Sequence record: MZ234013.1
From: Escherichia phage vB_EcoM-101112UKE3-1
Reading direction: 5' to 3' (one strand)
Length of the DNA: 64,000 nucleotides
Part shown: in pieces, positions 2,047 through 51,686 of the stretch
How positions within the stretch are numbered: the stretch's first letter is position 1
How the letters are laid out: each line of letters begins with the position of its first letter
Notes under the pieces: generated by a model
Told to the model about the DNA's origin: nothing
The model's database searches: none
The model's input: the letters and a program-made list of their open reading frames with translations, nothing else
Position numbers and translations under genes: made by a program

Positions 2047-2685
2047 ATGATTTATTACATGCACAAAAACGCGCCGTTTAAATATGGTAAATTTCCTAAT
2101 GCGCAATGTTATAATATAACGCCGAATGAAAATAATAATGGATACCATATCGGTGTAATTTTTGTAATTGTTAAAGATAACGAAATCGTTGCCTGGGCAG
2201 ATTTTAAAGGTACAACACATGATGTTAATCCGGTGCCTTTCACATATTACAATATAATGGATTTGGCATATGATTATAATTGGTTTAATCATGACACGTT
2301 GGCTCATATTCATATTGAAGGTGTAGGATTTGACATCTCTTATTCTAGCTACTCATTGTGTCCTATGAGTCGGGCTCATAAAGAACCTGAATATTTTTCA
2401 TTTAGGAAACGTGTAAACTTTAAACGCAGCACAGAGTATGTCGGTGGAATATTTGTTAAAGATAATCGAATTATTCGTATTAATTATCCTTTGGGCTGTG
2501 GTCAAAAAGATATTGATGTTGATTTAGATTTCACTGAAAATAATATTAATCATATTGCTTCTGTGTATTTTGGTATCGATCACAAAATTGTAATATGTGG
2601 ATATGAATTACCGTTTGAAGAACAGCCTAAAGTAAAAGTTTCTATTGACGATCAAATTTTTAATGCTTTTATGAATAGAGGTTAA
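2047..2685 (+). CDS. hypothetical protein (T4 61.2 position)
   Basis: ORF; ATG at 2047 overlaps sp stop; track ORF starts at upstream GTG. Confidence 0.55.
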   Translation: MIYYMHKNAPFKYGKFPNAQCYNITPNENNNGYHIGVIFVIVKDNEIVAWADFKGTTHDVNPVPFTYYNIMDLAYDYNWFNHDTLAHIHIEGVGFDISYSSYSLCPMSRAHKEPEYFSFRKRVNFKRSTEYVGGIFVKDNRIIRINYPLGCGQKDIDVDLDFTENNINHIASVYFGIDHKIVICGYELPFEEQPKVKVSIDDQIFNAFMNRG

Positions 2686-2686
2686 T

Positions 2687-2851
2687 ATGAAAACATATAA
2701 AGAATTTATTAAAGAAGATATGGTTGCTGGAGATTCAGGTGGTAATCCTGAAAATATCTCTACTGGAACAACATCAGGTGCTGTAGTAAATAAAGGTCCT
2801 GAACAGATTCCTAAAAAGAAAAAAGAGGAATCTAAAGAAAAAGAAGAGTAA
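2687..2851 (+). CDS. small acidic/lysine-rich protein (T4 61.1 position), 54 aa
   Basis: ATG overlapping previous stop (TAATATG), 55 codons, ends 3 nt before gene 61 start. Confidence 0.45.
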   Translation: MKTYKEFIKEDMVAGDSGGNPENISTGTTSGAVVNKGPEQIPKKKKEESKEKEE

Positions 2852-2854
2852 AGA

Positions 2855-3883
2855 ATGTCATCAATAGCTTGGATTGATAATGAGTTTGCATATCGTGCAT
2901 TAGCTCATTTACCTAAATTCACACAAGTAAATAATAGTTCAACTTTTAAATTACGGTTTAGATGCCCAGTTTGTGGAGATTCAAAAACCGACCAAAATAA
3001 AGCGCGTGGATGGTATTATGGTGATAATAATGAAGGAAATATTCATTGTTATAACTGTAACTATCATGCGCCAATCGGAATATATTTAAAGGAGTTTGAA
3101 CCTGATTTATATCGTGAGTATATCTTTGAAATAAGAAAAGAAAAAGGTAAAAGTCGTCCAGTAGAAAAACCTAAAGAACTTCCTAAACATCCTGAGAAGA
3201 AAATAATTAAATCTCTTCCGTCATGTGTTAGATTAGATAAACTGGCGGAAGACCATCCAATTATAAAATATGTAAAAGCTCGTTGTATTCCAAAGGATAA
3301 ATGGAAATATCTTTGGTTTACAACCGAATGGCCTAAATTAGTTAATAGCATAGCACCGGGAACATACAAAAAGGAAATTTCTGAGCCTCGTCTTGTTATT
3401 CCAATTTATAATGCTAATGGAAAAGCTGAGTCTTTTCAAGGACGTGCATTAAAGAAAGATGCTCCTCAAAAATATATCACCATCAAAGCTTATCCTGAGG
3501 CAACAAAAATATATGGAGTCGAACGAGTTAAAGATGGTGATGTATATGTTCTAGAAGGACCTATAGATTCACTTTTTATTGAAAATGGTATAGCTATTAC
3601 GGGTGGTCAATTAGACCTAGAAGTTGTTCCATTTAAAGATAGACGAGTGTGGGTTTTAGATAATGAGCCTCGTCACCCTGACACTATCAAGCGAATGACT
3701 AAATTAGTTGATGCAGGAGAAAGGGTTATGTTTTGGGATAAATCTCCCTGGAAATCAAAAGATGTTAATGATATGATTAGAAAGGAAGGTGCAACCCCTG
3801 AACAAATTATGGAATATATGAAAAATAATATTGCCCAGGGGTTAATGGCTAAAATGCGGTTATCTAAATATGCCAAGATTTAA
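2855..3883 (+). CDS. 61: DNA primase gp61, 342 aa
   Basis: N-terminal zinc ribbon CPVCGDS...CYNC; sequence matches T4 gp61; length 342 aa. Confidence 0.9.
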   Translation: MSSIAWIDNEFAYRALAHLPKFTQVNNSSTFKLRFRCPVCGDSKTDQNKARGWYYGDNNEGNIHCYNCNYHAPIGIYLKEFEPDLYREYIFEIRKEKGKSRPVEKPKELPKHPEKKIIKSLPSCVRLDKLAEDHPIIKYVKARCIPKDKWKYLWFTTEWPKLVNSIAPGTYKKEISEPRLVIPIYNANGKAESFQGRALKKDAPQKYITIKAYPEATKIYGVERVKDGDVYVLEGPIDSLFIENGIAITGGQLDLEVVPFKDRRVWVLDNEPRHPDTIKRMTKLVDAGERVMFWDKSPWKSKDVNDMIRKEGATPEQIMEYMKNNIAQGLMAKMRLSKYAKI

Positions 3884-41576: not shown

Positions 41577-41892
41577 CATTCGTCCGGTCGATGAGACCGG
41601 TCTTTCAGAAAAAGAACTTTCAATCAAGAAAGAAAAGGATGAAATAGCAAAGCTTCTTGATCGTCAAGAAAATGGATTTATTATTGAAAAAATGGTAGAA
41701 GAGTTTGGAATGAGTTATCTTGAAGCTACAACAGCATTCTTAGAAGAAAACTCTATTCCTGAAACTCAATTTGCTAAATTTATTCCTTCGGGTATAATTG
41801 AAAAAATTCAGTCAGAAGCCATTGACGAAAATCTTTTACGTCCTTCTGTTGTTCGTTGTGAAAAAACTAATACATTAGATTTTCTGCTATGA
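41554..41892 (+). CDS. 33: late transcription co-activator gp33, 112 aa
   Basis: Sequence matches T4 gp33. Confidence 0.85.
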   Translation: MTQFSLNDIRPVDETGLSEKELSIKKEKDEIAKLLDRQENGFIIEKMVEEFGMSYLEATTAFLEENSIPETQFAKFIPSGIIEKIQSEAIDENLLRPSVVRCEKTNTLDFLL

Positions 41893-42542
41893 TTAAACTC
41901 CGCATGCCTGCTGGTGGTGAAAGATACATTGATGGTAAATCAGTTTATAAATTATACTTAATGATAAAACAACATATGAATGGAAAGTATGATGTAATTA
42001 AGTATAATTGGTGCATGCGGGTGTCTGATGCCGCTTATCAAAAGCGAAGGGATAAGTATTTTTTCCAGAAGTTATCAGAAAAATATAAATTAAAGGAACT
42101 TGCTTTAATCTTTATAAGTAATTTGGTTGCTAACCAAGATGCTTGGATTGGTGACATCTCTGACGCTGATGCACTTGTGTTTTATCGTGAATATATCGGA
42201 CGCTTAAAGCAAATTAAATTTAAGTTTGAAGAAGATATTCGCAACATTTATTATTTTAGTAAAAAAGTTGAAGTTTCTGCTTTTAAAGAAATCTTTGAAT
42301 ATAATCCAAAGGTTCAGTCAAGTTATATTTTTAAACTTCTGCAATCGAACATAATTTCGTTTGAGACGTTTATCTTGCTTGATTCGTTTTTAAATATAAT
42401 CGATAAACATGATGAACAGACTGATAATTTAGTTTGGAACAATTATTCTATAAAGTTAAAAGCTTATAGAAAAATTTTAAATATTGATTCACAGAAAGCT
42501 AAAAATGTTTTCATTGAAACTGTGAAATCTTGCAAGTATTAA
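41889..42542 (+). CDS. 59: helicase loader gp59, 217 aa
   Basis: Size and position. Confidence 0.85.
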   Translation: MIKLRMPAGGERYIDGKSVYKLYLMIKQHMNGKYDVIKYNWCMRVSDAAYQKRRDKYFFQKLSEKYKLKELALIFISNLVANQDAWIGDISDADALVFYREYIGRLKQIKFKFEEDIRNIYYFSKKVEVSAFKEIFEYNPKVQSSYIFKLLQSNIISFETFILLDSFLNIIDKHDEQTDNLVWNNYSIKLKAYRKILNIDSQKAKNVFIETVKSCKY

Positions 42543-42641: not shown

Positions 42642-43550
42642 ATGTTTAAACGTAAATCTACTGCTGAACTCGCTGCACAAATGGCTAAACTGGCTGGAAA
42701 TAAAGGTGGTTTTTCTTCTGAAGATAAAGGCGAGTGGAAACTGAAACTCGACAATGCGGGTAACGGTCAAGCAGTAATTCGTTTTCTTCCGTCTAAAAAT
42801 GATGAACAAGCACCATTTGCAATTCTTGTAAATCACGGTTTCAAGAAAAATGGTAAATGGTATATTGAAACATGTTCATCTACCCACGGTGATTACGATT
42901 CTTGCCCAGTATGTCAATACATCAGTAAAAATGATCTGTACAACACTGACAATAAAGAGTACAGTCTTGTTAAACGTAAAACTTCTTACTGGGCTAACAT
43001 TCTTGTTGTAAAAGACCCAGCTGCTCCAGAAAACGAAGGTAAAGTATTTAAATATCGTTTCGGTAAGAAAATCTGGGATAAAATCAATGCAATGATTGCA
43101 GTTGATGTTGAAATGGGTGAAACTCCGGTTGATGTAACTTGCCCGTGGGAAGGTGCTAACTTTGTACTGAAAGTTAAACAAGTTTCTGGTTTTAGTAACT
43201 ACGACGAATCTAAATTCCTGAATCAATCTGCGATTCCAAACATTGATGATGAATCTTTCCAGAAAGAACTGTTCGAACAAATGGTTGACCTTTCTGAAAT
43301 GACTTCTAAAGATAAATTCAAATCATTTGAAGAACTGAGCACTAAATTCGGTCAAGTTATGGGAACTGCTGTGATGGGCGGTGCCGCTGCAACTGCTGCT
43401 AAGAAAGCTGATAAAGTTGCTGATGATTTGGATGCATTCAATGTTGATGACTTCAATACAAAAACTGAAGATGATTTTATGAGCTCAAGCTCTGGCAGTT
43501 CATCTAGTGCTGATGACACGGACCTGGATGACCTTTTGAATGACCTTTAA
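42642..43550 (+). CDS. 32: ssDNA-binding protein gp32
   Basis: Sequence matches T4 gp32 including acidic C-terminus. Confidence 0.95.
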
Positions 43551-44745: not shown

Positions 44746-45774
<1,029 letters not shown>

Positions 45775-45775
<1 letters not shown>

Positions 45776-46323
45776 TGAAACAATACCAATTTTTAATTAA
45801 AGATATCCTGGAAAATGGCTACGAAACCGATGACCGAACAGGCACAGGAACAATTGCTTTGTTCGGTACTAAATTACGCTGGGATTTAACTAAAGGTTTT
45901 CCTGCAGTAACAACTAAGAAGCTCGCCTGGAAAGCTTGCATTGCTGAGCTGCTTTGGTTTTTATCGGGAAGCACAAATGTCAATGATTTGCGATTAATTC
46001 AACATGATTCGTTAATCCAAGGCAAAACAGTTTGGGATGAAAATTACGAAAATCAAGCAAAAGATTTAGGATACCATAGCGGTGAACTTGGTCCAATTTA
46101 TGGAAAACAGTGGCGTGATTTTGGTGGTGTAGACCAAATTATAGAAGTTATTGATCGTATTAAAAAATTGCCAAATGATAGGCGTCAAATTGTTTCAGCA
46201 TGGAATCCAGCTGAACTCAAGCAGATGGCATTACCGCCTTGTCATATGTTCTATCAGTTTAATGTGCGTAATGGCTATTTGGATTTGCAGTGGTATCAAC
46301 GATCAGTAGATGTTTTCTTGGGT
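45775..46323 (+). CDS. td: thymidylate synthase, exon 1 (183 codons)
   Basis: Matches T4 TS from MKQYQ to ...VDVFLG; frame breaks at the group I intron 5' splice site. Confidence 0.9.
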
Positions 46324-46643
46324 TAATTGAGGCCTGAGTATAAGGTGACTTATACTTGTAATCTATCTAAACGGGGAACCTCTCTAGTAGACAATCCCGT
46401 GCTAAATTGTAGGACTACCCTTTAATAATTTCATCAGGATTAGTTACTTATCGTGTAAAATCTGATAAATGGAATTGGTTCTACATAAATGCCTAACGAC
46501 TATCCCTTTGGGGAGTAGGGTCAAGTGACTCGAAACGATAGACAACTTGCTTTAACAAGTTGGAGATATAGTCTGATCTGCATGGTGACATGCAGCTGGA
46601 TATAATTCCGGGGTAAGATTAACGACCTTATCTGAACATAATG
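46324..46643 (+). ncRNA. group I self-splicing intron in td, 320 nt, lacking an intact homing endonuclease ORF
   Basis: 5' end TAATTGAGGCCTGAGTATAAGGTGACTTATAC... and 3' end ...GGGGTAAGATTAACGACCTTATCTGAACATAATG match the T4 td intron core; TS frame resumes at 46644. Confidence 0.85.
46431..46496 (+). pseudogene. probable remnant of intron homing endonuclease I-TevI (3' terminal codons only)
   Basis: In-frame SSGLVTYRVKSDKWNWFYINA then stop, with no start codon; recalled as the I-TevI C-terminus. Confidence 0.5.
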
Positions 46644-46955
46644 CTTCCATTTAATATTGCATCATATGCTACGTTAGTTCATATTGTAGCTAAGATGTGT
46701 AATCTTATTCCGGGAGATTTGATATTTTCCGGTGGTAATACTCATATCTATATGAATCACGTAGAACAATGTAAAGAAATTTTGCGTCGTGAACCTAAAG
46801 AGCTTTGTGAACTGGTAATAGGCGGATTGCCTTATAAATTCCGCTATCTTTCTACTAAAGAACAATTGGAATACATTCTTAAACTCAGGCCTAAAGATTT
46901 CGTTCTCAAAGATTATCAGTCCCACGGCGTCTTGAAAGGAAAAATGGCGGTGTAA
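46644..46955 (+). CDS. td: thymidylate synthase, exon 2 (103 codons)
   Basis: LPFNIASYATLVHIV... continues the TS sequence to stop. Confidence 0.9.
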   Translation, partial: LPFNIASYATLVHIVAKMCNLIPGDLIFSGGNTHIYMNHVEQCKEILRREPKELCELVIGGLPYKFRYLSTKEQLEYILKLRPKDFVLKDYQSHGVLKGKMAV

Positions 46956-47242: not shown

Positions 47243-47522
47243 ATATAAATCCGACTTTGATGTCAATATTCACCGCGGTACATTTTGGGGAAATTACGTT
47301 GGTAAAGATGCTGGCAGCCGGGAGGCTGCCATTGAATTATTCAAAAAAGATTTTATACGTCGAATTAAATCCGGAGAAATAACTAAAGCACATTTAGAGC
47401 CTTTACGTGGAATGAGGCTAGGATGCACATGTAAACCAAAGCCGTGTCATGGTGATATAATAGCTCATATAGTTAACCGACTGTTTAAAGACGATTTTCA
47501 AGTTGAGGACTTATGCAATTAA
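47196..47522 (+). CDS. hypothetical protein, 108 aa
   Basis: ORF overlapping previous ORF in another frame. Confidence 0.45.
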
Positions 47523-49777
47523 TTAATGTTATCAAAAGTAGTGGTGTTTCTCAGAGCTTTGACCCACAAAAAATTATTAAAGTTTTATCTTGGGCAGCTG
47601 AGGGAACATCAGTAGATCCTTATGAATTATATGAAAATATTAAATCTTATCTCCGTGATGGAATGACAACTGATGATATTCAGACTATTGTCATTAAGGC
47701 CGCTGCGAATTCTATTTCGGTTGAAGAGCCTGATTATCAATATGTAGCTGCACGTTGTCTAATGTTCGCTCTTCGTAAGCATGTTTATGGGCAGTATGAA
47801 CCGCGTTCATTTATTGACCATATTTCTTACTGTGTAAATGAAGGTAAATACGACCCTGAACTGTTGTCAAAATATTCAGCAGAAGAAATTACATTTTTAG
47901 AATCAAAAATTAAGCACGAGCGGGATATGGAATTTACTTATTCCGGGGCGATGCAATTAAAAGAAAAATATCTAGTTAAAGATAAAACCACTGGTCAAAT
48001 TTATGAAACTCCACAGTTTGCATTTATGACTATTGGAATGGCATTGCATCAAGATGAACCTGTTGATAGATTAAAACATGTTATTCGTTTTTATGAAGCA
48101 GTATCTACTCGACAGATTTCATTGCCAACTCCTATTATGGCTGGTTGCCGTACTCCGACTCGACAGTTTAGTTCATGCGTTGTTATTGAAGCTGGTGATT
48201 CATTGAAGTCAATTAATAAAGCTTCTGCTTCAATTGTTGAATATATTTCTAAACGCGCTGGAATTGGAATTAACGTAGGTATGATTCGTGCTGAAGGTTC
48301 TAAGATTGGCATGGGTGAAGTACGCCATACTGGTGTTATTCCTTTTTGGAAACATTTTCAGACTGCAGTTAAATCATGTTCACAGGGTGGAATTCGTGGC
48401 GGCGCTGCTACTGCTTATTATCCTATTTGGCATTTGGAAGTTGAAAATCTTCTCGTTTTGAAAAATAACAAAGGCGTAGAAGAAAACCGCATTCGTCATA
48501 TGGATTATGGTGTTCAGCTGAATGATTTGATGATGGAACGATTCGGAAAGAACGATTACATTACTTTGTTCAGTCCGCATGAAATGGGTGGCGAGCTTTA
48601 TTATTCTTATTTTAAAGACCAAGACCGTTTCCGTGAATTATACGAAGCAGCAGAAAAAGACCCTAATATTCGTAAAAAGCGTATTAAAGCCCGTGAACTA
48701 TTTGAATTGCTCATGACTGAACGTTCAGGAACAGCAAGGATTTATGTGCAGTTCATTGATAATACGAATAACTATACTCCGTTTATTCGTGAAAAGGCAC
48801 CTATTCGTCAGAGTAACTTGTGCTGTGAAATTGCTATTCCAACAAATGATGTGAATAGTCCTGATGCTGAAATTGGATTGTGTACTCTCTCTGCATTCGT
48901 ACTGGATAATTTTGACTGGCAAGACCAAGATAAAATTAATGAATTGGCAGAAGTTCAAGTTCGTGCTCTTGATAATCTTTTGGATTACCAAGGATATCCA
49001 GTTCCTGAAGCAGAAAAAGCTAAAAAGCGTCGAAACCTTGGTGTAGGTGTTACTAACTATGCAGCTTGGCTGGCAAGTAACTTTGCTTCTTATGAAGATG
49101 CTAACGATTTAACACATGAACTATTTGAGAGATTACAGTATGGACTCATTAAAGCATCCATTAAGCTCGCCAAAGAAAAAGGACCTTGCGAATATTATTC
49201 AGACACTCGTTGGTCTCGAGGCGAATTACCTATCGACTGGTACAATAAAAAGATTGACCAAATCGCAGCTCCAAAATACGTTTGTGACTGGTCGTCGCTG
49301 CGGGAAGACCTTAAGCTCTTTGGCATCCGTAATAGCACATTATCAGCACTTATGCCATGTGAGTCATCTTCCCAAGTTTCTAACAGTACAAACGGTATCG
49401 AGCCTCCACGTGGACCAGTCTCTGTTAAAGAATCAAAAGAGGGCTCCTTTAATCAAGTCGTGCCCAATATTGAGCATAACATAGACCTTTACGACTATAC
49501 ATGGAAATTAGCTAAGAAAGGTAATAAACCTTATCTTACGCAGGTAGCTATTATGCTGAAATGGGTATGTCAATCAGCTTCAGCGAATACATACTATGAC
49601 CCGCAGATTTTTCCAAAAGGAAAGGTTCCAATGTCAATAATGATTGATGACATGCTATACGGATGGTATTATGGCATTAAAAACTTCTATTATCATAATA
49701 CTCGTGATGGTTCCGGTACTGATGATTATGAAATAGAAACTCCAAAAGCCGATGATTGCGCAGCGTGTAAATTGTAA
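47513..49777 (+). CDS. nrdA: ribonucleotide reductase large subunit NrdA, 754 aa
   Basis: Length 754 aa; ATP-cone N-terminus; class Ia RNR motifs. Confidence 0.95.
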   Translation: MQLINVIKSSGVSQSFDPQKIIKVLSWAAEGTSVDPYELYENIKSYLRDGMTTDDIQTIVIKAAANSISVEEPDYQYVAARCLMFALRKHVYGQYEPRSFIDHISYCVNEGKYDPELLSKYSAEEITFLESKIKHERDMEFTYSGAMQLKEKYLVKDKTTGQIYETPQFAFMTIGMALHQDEPVDRLKHVIRFYEAVSTRQISLPTPIMAGCRTPTRQFSSCVVIEAGDSLKSINKASASIVEYISKRAGIGINVGMIRAEGSKIGMGEVRHTGVIPFWKHFQTAVKSCSQGGIRGGAATAYYPIWHLEVENLLVLKNNKGVEENRIRHMDYGVQLNDLMMERFGKNDYITLFSPHEMGGELYYSYFKDQDRFRELYEAAEKDPNIRKKRIKARELFELLMTERSGTARIYVQFIDNTNNYTPFIREKAPIRQSNLCCEIAIPTNDVNSPDAEIGLCTLSAFVLDNFDWQDQDKINELAEVQVRALDNLLDYQGYPVPEAEKAKKRRNLGVGVTNYAAWLASNFASYEDANDLTHELFERLQYGLIKASIKLAKEKGPCEYYSDTRWSRGELPIDWYNKKIDQIAAPKYVCDWSSLREDLKLFGIRNSTLSALMPCESSSQVSNSTNGIEPPRGPVSVKESKEGSFNQVVPNIEHNIDLYDYTWKLAKKGNKPYLTQVAIMLKWVCQSASANTYYDPQIFPKGKVPMSIMIDDMLYGWYYGIKNFYYHNTRDGSGTDDYEIETPKADDCAACKL

Positions 49778-50508
49778 TGAATTATCAAAAAATCTATAAC
49801 GACCTAATTTCCCGAGCTCAGGCTCGGGAATCTTTACTAGAATATAAAGAGACACATCATATAATCCCTAAATGCATGGGAGGTTCTGATGATAAGGAAA
49901 ATTTAGTTGAATTAACAGCCAGAGAACATTTTATAGCTCATCTATTACTATGTAAGATAAATGAAGGCCATTTTGGTCTTGCCTCTGCGTTAACGTTACT
50001 GGCAACAGATAAAGCTGGCAATAGAATTAATAACAGATTGTACAGCTTACACAGAAAATTATTTGCTAAAGCTAATTCTGAGTTCTTTAAGAAATATTGG
50101 AAAAATAATCCTCATCCTAAAGGGATGCTAGGCAAGCATCATAAAAACGAAACTAAACAGCATGTATCTAACGTGAATAGATATGCGTGCCCATCTGTAG
50201 AAATACATAAATTCTCATTAGATGGGGATTTCATAGAAACCTTTCACTCTATTGCGGCAGCGTCCCGGTCAGTTAATGGAAACGGGTCAAATATCAAATA
50301 TTGTGCCGAGGGTAAATTTCAATATGCTTATGGATTTAGATGGTCATATCAACTTGATGCAAAGTTTGACAAAATAAAACCAAGAGATTATAAAGGAATC
50401 CGCGGTAAGAAATGGATTAATAATGGAAGTGAATGCACGCTTATAGGTAAAGATGATATTATACCGCCAGGTTGGAAACACGGCAGAATTTTAAAGAGGA
50501 AAAATTAA
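49777..50508 (+). CDS. mobE: free-standing HNH homing endonuclease (MobE-like), 243 aa
   Basis: HNH motif HHIIPKCMGGSDDKENLVELTAREHFIAH; sits between nrdA and nrdB with TAATG overlaps at both ends. Confidence 0.7.
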   Translation: MNYQKIYNDLISRAQARESLLEYKETHHIIPKCMGGSDDKENLVELTAREHFIAHLLLCKINEGHFGLASALTLLATDKAGNRINNRLYSLHRKLFAKANSEFFKKYWKNNPHPKGMLGKHHKNETKQHVSNVNRYACPSVEIHKFSLDGDFIETFHSIAAASRSVNGNGSNIKYCAEGKFQYAYGFRWSYQLDAKFDKIKPRDYKGIRGKKWINNGSECTLIGKDDIIPPGWKHGRILKRKN

Positions 50509-51686
50509 TGTCTACAGTTTTTAATACAAATCCAGTTGATGTTTTAAAAGAACCTATGTTTTTTGGTTCAGGTCTTGGTATTGCGCGTTATGATATTCAA
50601 CGCCATAAAGTTTTTGAAGATTTAACCGAAAAGCAGTTGTCATTTTTCTGGCGTCCTGAAGAAGTAAACTTAATGATGGATGCTGCACAGTTTAATAAGC
50701 TTCCTCAATATCAGCAAGATATTTTTACTAATAACCTGAAGTATCAATCACTTTTGGATAGCATTCAGGGTCGTGCGCCGTCTGCTGTACTTATGTCATT
50801 AATTTCAGACCCTAGCCTTGATACATGGGTTGCTACGTGGACTTTTAGTGAAACTATTCACAGCCGTTCATATACACATATCATGCGAAATCTTTATACT
50901 GATCCATCGAAGGTGTTTGATGAGATTGTATTAGATGAAGCTATTATGAAACGTGCTGAATCAATTGGACGTTATTATGATGATGTTCTGATTAAAACTC
51001 GTTATTGGGAAAACGCTAAAGCTGATATCGAATACCAAAAAGAAATTAATGCAGACGAAGACGTTATTGAAGATGCTATTGAGCATGAGACATATTGGAA
51101 GCATGAGCTAATGAAATCTCTTTACCTCTGTTTGCATGTAATCAACGCATTGGAAGCTATTCGTTTTTATGTATCTTTCGCATGTACCTTTAACTTCCAT
51201 AAAAACATGGAAATCATGGAAGGTAATGCCAAGATTATGAAGTTCATTGCGCGCGATGAGCAACTTCACCTTAAAGGTACTCAATATATTATTCGTCAAC
51301 TTCAACTTGGCACTGATGGCGATGAATGGGTTAAAATTGCTCAAGAGTGTGAACAAGAAGCAGTTGATATTTTCATGGAAGTTAACCGCCAAGAAAAAGA
51401 TTGGGCGGTTCATTTATTTAAAGATGGCGATGTTCCTGGATTAAATACAAATAGCATGTGGAGCTTTATTGATTACTTAACTGTATCTCGTATGAAACAG
51501 TGCGGTCTTCCATGTCCAATTACCGATGCTCCGGTTAAACATCCGTATCCTTGGATTCGTGAATATCTTAATTCTGATAATGTTCAATCCGCGCCACAAG
51601 AAGTAGAACTGTCATCTTATCTTGTAGCACAGATTGATAATGACGTTGATGATAAAGTTATGATGAGTTTTAAAAAATATTTTTAA
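50508..51686 (+). CDS. nrdB: ribonucleotide reductase small subunit NrdB, uninterrupted
   Basis: Sequence matches T4 NrdB from MSTVFNTNPVD; continuous ORF, no intron. Confidence 0.92.
   Translation: MSTVFNTNPVDVLKEPMFFGSGLGIARYDIQRHKVFEDLTEKQLSFFWRPEEVNLMMDAAQFNKLPQYQQDIFTNNLKYQSLLDSIQGRAPSAVLMSLISDPSLDTWVATWTFSETIHSRSYTHIMRNLYTDPSKVFDEIVLDEAIMKRAESIGRYYDDVLIKTRYWENAKADIEYQKEINADEDVIEDAIEHETYWKHELMKSLYLCLHVINALEAIRFYVSFACTFNFHKNMEIMEGNAKIMKFIARDEQLHLKGTQYIIRQLQLGTDGDEWVKIAQECEQEAVDIFMEVNRQEKDWAVHLFKDGDVPGLNTNSMWSFIDYLTVSRMKQCGLPCPITDAPVKHPYPWIREYLNSDNVQSAPQEVELSSYLVAQIDNDVDDKVMMSFKKYF

Follow-up and report, generated by a model that had tools for sequence, protein, structure and literature searches.

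Introns of T-Even Phages and the Loss of Their Endonucleases

The td gene of phage T4, which encodes thymidylate synthase, is interrupted by a group I intron of 1016 nucleotides (nt; subgroup IA2) carrying the gene for the homing endonuclease I-TevI. In a review of 2010, all three introns of the T-even phages were described as carrying an endonuclease gene of their own, only that of nrdB being degenerate (PMC2993671). An operator for I-TevI and a late promoter are arranged within the td intron (PMC2988022), and only the final 20 nt of the I-TevI open reading frame (ORF) are structural, supplying strands of the helices P6a, P6 and P7 (PMC3073962). Here, we describe the td locus in a stretch of 64,000 nucleotides from Escherichia phage vB_EcoM-101112UKE3-1 (MZ234013.1), the whole of which is called the window below. 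Its td gene is interrupted by 320 nt, and we hold it highly probable that this insert is the td intron of T4-like phages after loss of the homing-endonuclease gene. The insertion site, the splice-site sequences, the core from P1 to P9.2 and the last 22 I-TevI codons with their stop are those of T4, whereas 696 nt are missing from the window allele and no endonuclease is encoded.

The nearest precedent is found in the nrdB intron of T4, where the I-TevIII gene survives as a relic of a natural internal deletion and the ribozyme works; I-TevIII of T4 is a deleted version of the intact RB3 form (Eddy and Gold 1991, via PMC2993671, PMC2790892). That relic belongs to another gene and another intron, concerns an HNH endonuclease and has left a sizeable truncated ORF, whereas the td remnant stems from a GIY-YIG enzyme and consists of 22 codons with no start. 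MobE, encoded next to it, mobilises the nrdB relic in trans (PMC2790892), whereas td is not known to have such a helper. A second comparison is offered by engineered ORF-deleted td introns of about 250–340 nt (with shortened P6a, permuted at P6a or with aptamers in P6), which self-splice (PMC2729099, PMC8554844, PMC8565351). These were designed from the T4 allele, whereas the window intron is natural, has endpoints of its own and carries single nucleotide polymorphisms not found in T4.

Homing endonucleases are thought to pass through a life cycle of invasion, fixation, degeneration and loss (PMC5009752). With its endonuclease gene gone and the intron persisting, the window allele fits the degeneration stage. 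This cycle was established mainly on yeast mitochondrial introns, whereas in td its stages co-occur among close, freely recombining phages. No natural td intron without I-TevI was found in the literature searched, coverage of which was incomplete, so that an earlier description is possible.

The Split td Gene

The td reading frame opens at 45775, reaches ...VDVFLG at 46323 and by translation of the ORF runs immediately into TAA (46324–46326). It picks up again with LPFNIAS at 46644 and continues through 46955 (...KGKMAV, then stop). The split had been placed exactly there in the original prediction, which was made from the sequence alone, and both the coordinates and the sequences proved correct. 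The features of the gene are as follows:

45775..46323, + strand: td exon 1 (ORF, translation and gapless 1TIS alignment of the spliced product)
46324..46643, + strand: td group I intron with I-TevI deleted, 320 nt (Rfam RF00028; the 1016-nt intron minus 696 nt, with 3–4 mismatches)
46643, + strand: 3'-terminal G of the intron, preceding exon 2
46644..46955, + strand: td exon 2 (ORF, translation and 1TIS alignment)

Joined, the two exons give a protein of 286 amino acids that is about 96% identical to T4 Td and aligns with T4 thymidylate synthase (PDB 1TIS) from residues 1–286 on 1–286 without a gap (E-value 1.7e-191). The insertion site is that of T4, the exon boundaries are the same across the 22 alleles compared, and the exons join in frame. 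The insert begins with TAATTGAGGCCTGAGTATAAGGTG and ends with CTGAACATAATG; its final three bases form an ATG at 46641, which is the exon-2 start chosen by ORF callers.

The Deletion and Its Endpoints

The full-length td intron had been put at about 1 kb in the original prediction and measures 1016 nt in T4T and fFiEco06, as it does in a20, with I-TevI at intron positions 132–869. Endpoints were determined by minimum-mismatch split mapping against these three full-length introns, as pairwise alignment with MAFFT misplaced the gap. A single junction was found, with the left arm ending at intron position 103–105 and the right arm starting from T4 intron position 800–802, so that 696 nt are gone; the single internal deletion of the I-TevI ORF that had been proposed is thereby supported. 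Apart from the deletion, the window intron departs from that of fFiEco06 at 3 positions and from that of T4 at 4, which rules out a chance resemblance; from a20 it departs at 9.

46426..46429, + strand: deletion junction (split mapping), with an ambiguous AA at 46427–46428
46410..46429, + strand: I-TevI operator-like sequence, kept (intron 87–106); the left deletion end adjoins it and the late-promoter-like stretch overlaps it

The AA at the junction is a microhomology of 2 nt common to the left context (TTTAATAA, followed by ATAC) and the right context (TTTT(A/G)AAA, followed by TTTC). Two A/T-rich stretches would thus have been joined here, slipped or illegitimate recombination being the likeliest mechanism. 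The deleted 696 nt sit wholly within the loop of P6a. With them went the ribosome-binding site (RBS), the hairpin that regulates it, the start codon and codons 1–223 of I-TevI; these codons comprise the GIY-YIG domain, the zinc-finger linker and the greater part of the DNA-binding domain. The late-promoter-like sequence AATAAATA reads AATAATTT after the deletion, and from this sequence change the late promoter was probably destroyed. The operator-like sequence that was kept is identical to the T4 homing site at 16 of 20 positions when counted without gaps; counted likewise, T4's own intron reaches 14 of 20.

The Remnant of I-TevI

46428..46496, + strand: I-TevI pseudogene remnant, codons 224–245 (ISSGLVTYRVKSDKWNWFYINA) plus TAA stop; 22/22 residues identical

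Positions 46431–46496 encode SSGLVTYRVKSDKWNWFYINA, then a stop. The match to the I-TevI C-terminus that had been proposed originally could be pinned to residues 224–245 with all 22 identical; of the 116 residues making up the C-terminal DNA-binding domain in structure 1i3j (130–245), these are the final 22. When T4 I-TevI was compared by tblastn with the whole 64-kb window, only residues 224–245 were matched, and the GIY-YIG catalytic domain was absent. Between 68 and 70 nt of I-TevI have survived. About 20 of these are structural, and about 48–50 are a true, unselected leftover.

The lack of a start codon and the upstream in-frame TAG, both originally noted, were also confirmed: the TAG lies at 46410–46412, and no ATG, GTG or TTG occurs from there to the remnant. 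A start codon with an RBS was not found for the remnant in the frame 46410–46496, the region of the RBS hairpin being deleted. Judged from these signals, the remnant is not translatable. It has also decayed among copies of the 320-nt intron in other phages, with a 1-nt deletion in 235Ecol030PP and a Gly-to-Glu exchange in Elenatom. A small functional peptide or read-through product was considered and rejected, as the first intron codon is TAA, a TAG follows at 46410, a start codon is missing, and the sister copies carry a frameshift and a missense change.

The Ribozyme Core and Predicted Splicing

Identification of the insert with the conserved core of the T4 td intron was confirmed by Rfam. 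The group I intron model RF00028 matches positions 46314–46595 over its full length (model 1–253 of 253) with a score of 66.9 bits, above the gathering score of 50 (E-value 8.5e-15), and is the sole Rfam match in the window. The following elements were assigned:

46318-46323 / 46332-46337, + strand: P1, exon UUGGGU with internal guide sequence GCCUGA (read from the sequence)
46362-46367 / 46537-46542, + strand: P3 (complementarity, Rfam alignment)
46401-46402 / 46491-46492, + strand: P6 (folds of the segment and of the whole intron)
46408-46417 / 46476-46485, + strand: P6a, 10 base pairs, UGUAGGACUA / UGGUUCUACA, enclosing the residual 58-nt loop
46498..46573, + strand: catalytic core 3' of P6, with P7, P7.1, P7.2, the P3 3' strand and P8 (complementarity, Rfam alignment)
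46498-46503 / 46568-46573, + strand: P7, guanosine-binding helix, GACUAU / AUAGUC, the same in T4 and fFiEco06
46543-46549 / 46556-46562, + strand: P8 (complementarity, Rfam alignment)
46578-46584 / 46589-46595, + strand: P9 hairpin CUGCAUG-GUGA-CAUGCAG (Rfam alignment, also predicted by folding)

The 5' splice site is the U46323.G46332 wobble in P1, and UUGGGU is the known P1 substrate of td (PMC2729099). In the alleles of the HP3 type, guide positions 13 and 14 are A and G, and the P1 pairing is kept. The window pair G46401-C46492 corresponds to T4 G78-C865, the first pair of P6 (T4 numbering: PMC2729099). The 10-bp P6a is found in the minimum-energy folds of both the segment and the whole intron, and its top pair is changed from G.U to A-U, as intron A94 (46417) pairs with U46476. 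P6, P6a and P7 are thus all retained, which answers the question about the P6a–P7 structure that had been raised with the original prediction.

Outside the P6a loop, the intron is base for base that of the full-length, I-TevI-bearing fFiEco06 intron. The core span 46498–46573 is identical to fFiEco06 and shows no difference to T4; in the intron core as a whole, T4 and the window differ at a single position, 949. When nine compact alleles were analysed with RNAalifold, the helices P2, P8, P9 and P9.1/9.2 were recovered with three compensatory pairs, among them an A-U to U-A change in P8. This analysis was given supporting use only, as it also yielded non-native long-range pairs and left P6a unresolved, two alternative hairpins having been aligned there.

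Shortened or circularly permuted forms of P6a are tolerated, as td introns with such changes still splice (PMC2729099, PMC8554844). Because the core outside the P6a loop matches fFiEco06 and these published introns splice, we strongly infer that the 320-nt intron should still self-splice from the td transcript, giving a normal thymidylate synthase. The "defunct intron" of the original prediction is therefore apt for mobility only, the endonuclease being lost; the ribozyme is probably still capable of splicing. The best-surviving alternative, which we nevertheless regard as improbable, is that the intron is splicing-dead and td a split pseudogene, the phage relying on host thyA or on a reduced synthesis of deoxythymidine monophosphate. 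Loss of td is seen in relatives (one contig of IMG/VR and Pseudomonas phage PsgM02F), and viability of the phage is no proof of splicing because td is dispensable under some conditions. However, both exons are intact and the joined Td is full-length, the ribozyme outside the P6a loop is the same as in the I-TevI-bearing intron, the independent deletions described below all stop short of the P6a stem, and engineered td introns with a shortened P6a do splice (PMC2729099).

Compact td Introns in Other Phages

A census was carried out in 50,697 GenBank phage records. The td region was matched in 657 of them and the intron 3' core (at least 80% coverage) in 236, leaving about 420 td alleles intron-less. 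Most of the segment deleted here is present in 187 of the 50,697 records; the td records AY262149, AY262153 and AY262156, which stem from the survey of T-even introns by Sandegren and Sjoberg (2004), are full-length. With a synthetic 250-nt "core only" query, by which compact introns ranked first, 37 records with compact introns were found:

Class A (window type), 320 nt (319 in one), 16 records: Shinka, PYps55T, MLP2, UPWr_E2, C2-3, 235Ecol030PP, Pinarejo, SYGD1, U115, ESh30, HP3 (2 records), HP3.1, HP3.2, L14, Elenatom
Class B, 445–446 nt, 8 records: G28, FL18, F1, FN, e11/2
Class C, 315 nt, 1 record: Klebsiella phage EI
Class D, 250–263 nt, 12 records: PD112, 215Ecol030PP, CE1, BYEP01, CJY920, N2, HMD-9, GRNsp7, SEA1, others

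Junction mapping of class B (G28, FN, e11/2) revealed a 570–571-nt deletion at a 9–10-nt repeat, CATTTTAAA. It leaves an in-frame fusion of 55 amino acids, made of I-TevI residues 1–33 and 224–245 (positions 431–598 of the G28 locus; also in FN and e11/2), which keeps promoter, RBS and start codon and is labelled "homing endonuclease" or "endonuclease I-TevI" in some records. In Klebsiella phage EI, the deletion lies at a GGAAT repeat just past the start codon. PD112 and 215Ecol030PP carry a 754-nt deletion joining positions 93 and 848, which is the top of P6a; together with CE1 and BYEP01, these 262–263-nt forms are I-TevI deletions confined to the P6a loop. Because the junctions differ, at least three other I-TevI deletions (in introns of 445, 315 and 262 nt) are, on this mapping, independent of the 320-nt event. 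Every mapped I-TevI deletion falls inside the loop closed by P6a, and stopping at the P6a stem is the pattern expected if splicing is selected.

The shortest forms are of a different kind. In CJY920, N2 and SEA1 (250–254 nt), P6a is a hairpin GTTC-NNNN-GAAC (loop UUUU/GAAA) at intron positions of about 84–105, which is unrelated to the T4-type P6a, and I-TevI-derived sequence is lacking. The 250–254-nt introns (CJY920, N2, HMD-9, GRNsp7, SEA1) may never have held an ORF.

At the gathering threshold of Rfam, the compact introns were detected (63.8–75.7 bits), and the full-length 1016-nt and the 445-nt introns were missed, presumably owing to the large P6a insertion. In none of the 16 class A records is the intron annotated; two "thymidylate synthase" fragments are listed instead. 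In UPWr_E2 (PP418986), Pinarejo (PP925831) and Elenatom (PP925844), three small "hypothetical protein" coding sequences are called within the intron. The coding sequence of exon 1 in Pinarejo is 17 nt short at its end, and an indel is suggested when the sequences are compared without gaps. The record of Klebsiella phage EI (MN106245) bears the annotation "with intron of plasmid pMTL007C-E2".

A scan of IMG/VR with the intron 5' end returned two contigs only, too few for a census. In one of the IMG/VR sequences, IMGVR_UViG_3300030021_000013 (2352–3425), td exon 1 and about 150 nt of intron run straight into nrdA.2, and exon 2 is missing. In Pseudomonas phage PsgM02F (OR584013), homology to T4 starts from about intron position 749, so that exon 1 is lacking together with the 5' portion of the intron.

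Probable Origin and Spread of the 320-nt Allele

The 320-nt junction is shared by the 16 class A records, which come from Spain, Poland, the USA, China and elsewhere. Their copies of the intron are 0–7 substitutions apart and stand on different exon backgrounds. Three differences to T4 flank the junction (A94, A806 and A809), and all three are found in a divergent full-length allele of the type of phage a20. This allele occurs in about 26 records and encodes an intact I-TevI; compared with the T4 type, it shows 87% DNA identity over the ORF segment, and at the protein level 218 of the 246 positions aligned (the 245 residues and the stop) agree. A94, A806 and A809 are present in all 320-nt copies examined. 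Had a T4-type intron suffered the deletion, G94, G806 and T809 would be expected, so these positions suggest that the parent of the deletion was probably an a20-type intron rather than T4's allele.

The surroundings of the junction vary. In the copies of the HP3 type (HP3, U115, SYGD1, Pinarejo, Elenatom), exon 1 is a20-like, as are intron positions 13, 14, 54, 94, 806, 809 and 824. The window copy is a20-like solely at 94, 806 and 809, a patch of at most about 74 nt, and otherwise equals fFiEco06, including 300 nt of each exon. The Shinka and UPWr_E2 copies group with it, and C2-3 differs at one position. This would be accounted for by one deletion in an a20-type intron that was later moved into T4-type td backgrounds by homologous recombination. 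A full-length record combining A806/A809 with the T4-type T824 was not seen among the 60 matches listed, where it would be expected to rank directly below the 16 short-intron records.

It might be argued that the same 696-bp deletion arose repeatedly at a hotspot, without a single origin and recombination. The right endpoint (about 800) was indeed reused by the unrelated 570-nt deletion of FN, G28 and e11/2, and the TTTTAAAA stretch is deletion-prone. Nevertheless, the class A copies examined are all a20-type at 94, 806 and 809, including those whose exons and remaining intron sequence are of the T4 type, which makes repeated deletion very unlikely.

That the 320-nt form is ancestral and the 1016-nt form arose by later insertion of I-TevI is scarcely credible: group I introns are believed to have started out without ORFs (PMC3073962) and the compact 250–254-nt introns of CJY920, N2 and SEA1 may represent the uninvaded state, but the loop here holds 68–70 nt colinear and in frame with I-TevI (22/22 residues, with about 48–50 nt beyond the structural overlap) as well as the operator-like sequence upstream of the lost ORF, and neither feature is expected in an uninvaded intron. 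Just as little weight can be given to an assembly artefact or contamination by a laboratory ORF-deleted td construct; such introns are common in vectors and the annotators of phage EI noted a similarity to the pMTL007C-E2 intron, yet the junction recurs in 16 records from unrelated laboratories and countries on varied exon backgrounds, and its flanking polymorphisms are those of a natural divergent allele and not of T4, the source of laboratory constructs.

Several points weigh against a single loss of I-TevI from an intron that still splices and has since spread. Splicing of the 320-nt allele is a prediction from its sequence, and the residual 58-nt loop could in principle slow folding. A td exon has been lost entirely in the IMG/VR contig and in PsgM02F. 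The microhomology of 2 nt is weak evidence for any given deletion mechanism. The mosaic could reflect either an a20-type origin with introgression or an intermediate parent that has escaped sampling. A single collection underlies the census, and it includes duplicate or derived records (HP3 twice, HP3.1, HP3.2), and the exact junction was absent from scans of JGI metagenomes and IMG/VR.

Genome Neighbourhood

The window belongs to a Tequatrovirus; its closest relatives over 22 kb are PYps55T and UPWr_E2 (99.0% identical). The locus follows the T4 gene order with frd (44991–45572), td, nrdA.2 (DUF5496), nrdA.1 (DUF4326), nrdA (47513–49777), a mobE-like ORF and nrdB (about 50508–51686). The last is uninterrupted, so that the window contains no nrdB intron.

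49777..50508, + strand: mobE-like HNH/NUMOD1 ORF of 243 amino acids between nrdA and nrdB, like the free-standing mobE of T4

This ORF is the nearest endonuclease gene to the td intron. The known target of mobE is nrdB, not td (PMC2790892). Further upstream in the window, gene 59 (41889–42542) is directly followed by gene 32 (42642–43550). In UPWr_E2, a 633-bp homing-endonuclease gene lies between them at the position of segG, which explains the greater part of the difference in length between the two loci.

Mobility and Meaning for the Homing Cycle

The endonuclease that marks a homing intron was found neither in the intron nor elsewhere in the 64 kb. Without I-TevI, the intron would be unable to start homing by itself. 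It would still occupy the insertion site and split the I-TevI recognition site; because the recognition sequence stays split, we infer that the allele should resist I-TevI of a co-infecting phage. The mosaic pattern indicates that the intron may still move as a passenger through ordinary recombination. Translation of I-TevI conflicts with splicing of td (PMC2988022), and it is speculation that loss of I-TevI is advantageous by relieving this conflict.

Intron-less alleles, introns of 250–254 nt, I-TevI-bearing alleles of two diverged types and no fewer than four independent deletions of I-TevI were counted among the td genes. A wider proposal would be that the td introns show the whole homing cycle at once, that the 320-nt allele is spreading into I-TevI-bearing backgrounds and that loss of the endonuclease is favoured and not merely tolerated; taken together, we regard this as a tentative and rather doubtful idea.

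For annotation, the practical consequence is that introns go unannotated, thymidylate synthase coding sequences are split and spurious ORFs appear in the records, with Rfam missing the full-length forms. With their defined endpoints, natural td introns without I-TevI form a ready set of alleles on which the degeneration stage predicted for the homing cycle can be tested. Two further uses would be to determine how costly I-TevI is to carry and to see whether an occupied, endonuclease-free site blocks re-invasion. The biology is the expected one: what is seen in these phages is a late stage of a selfish intron, not a new kind of element.

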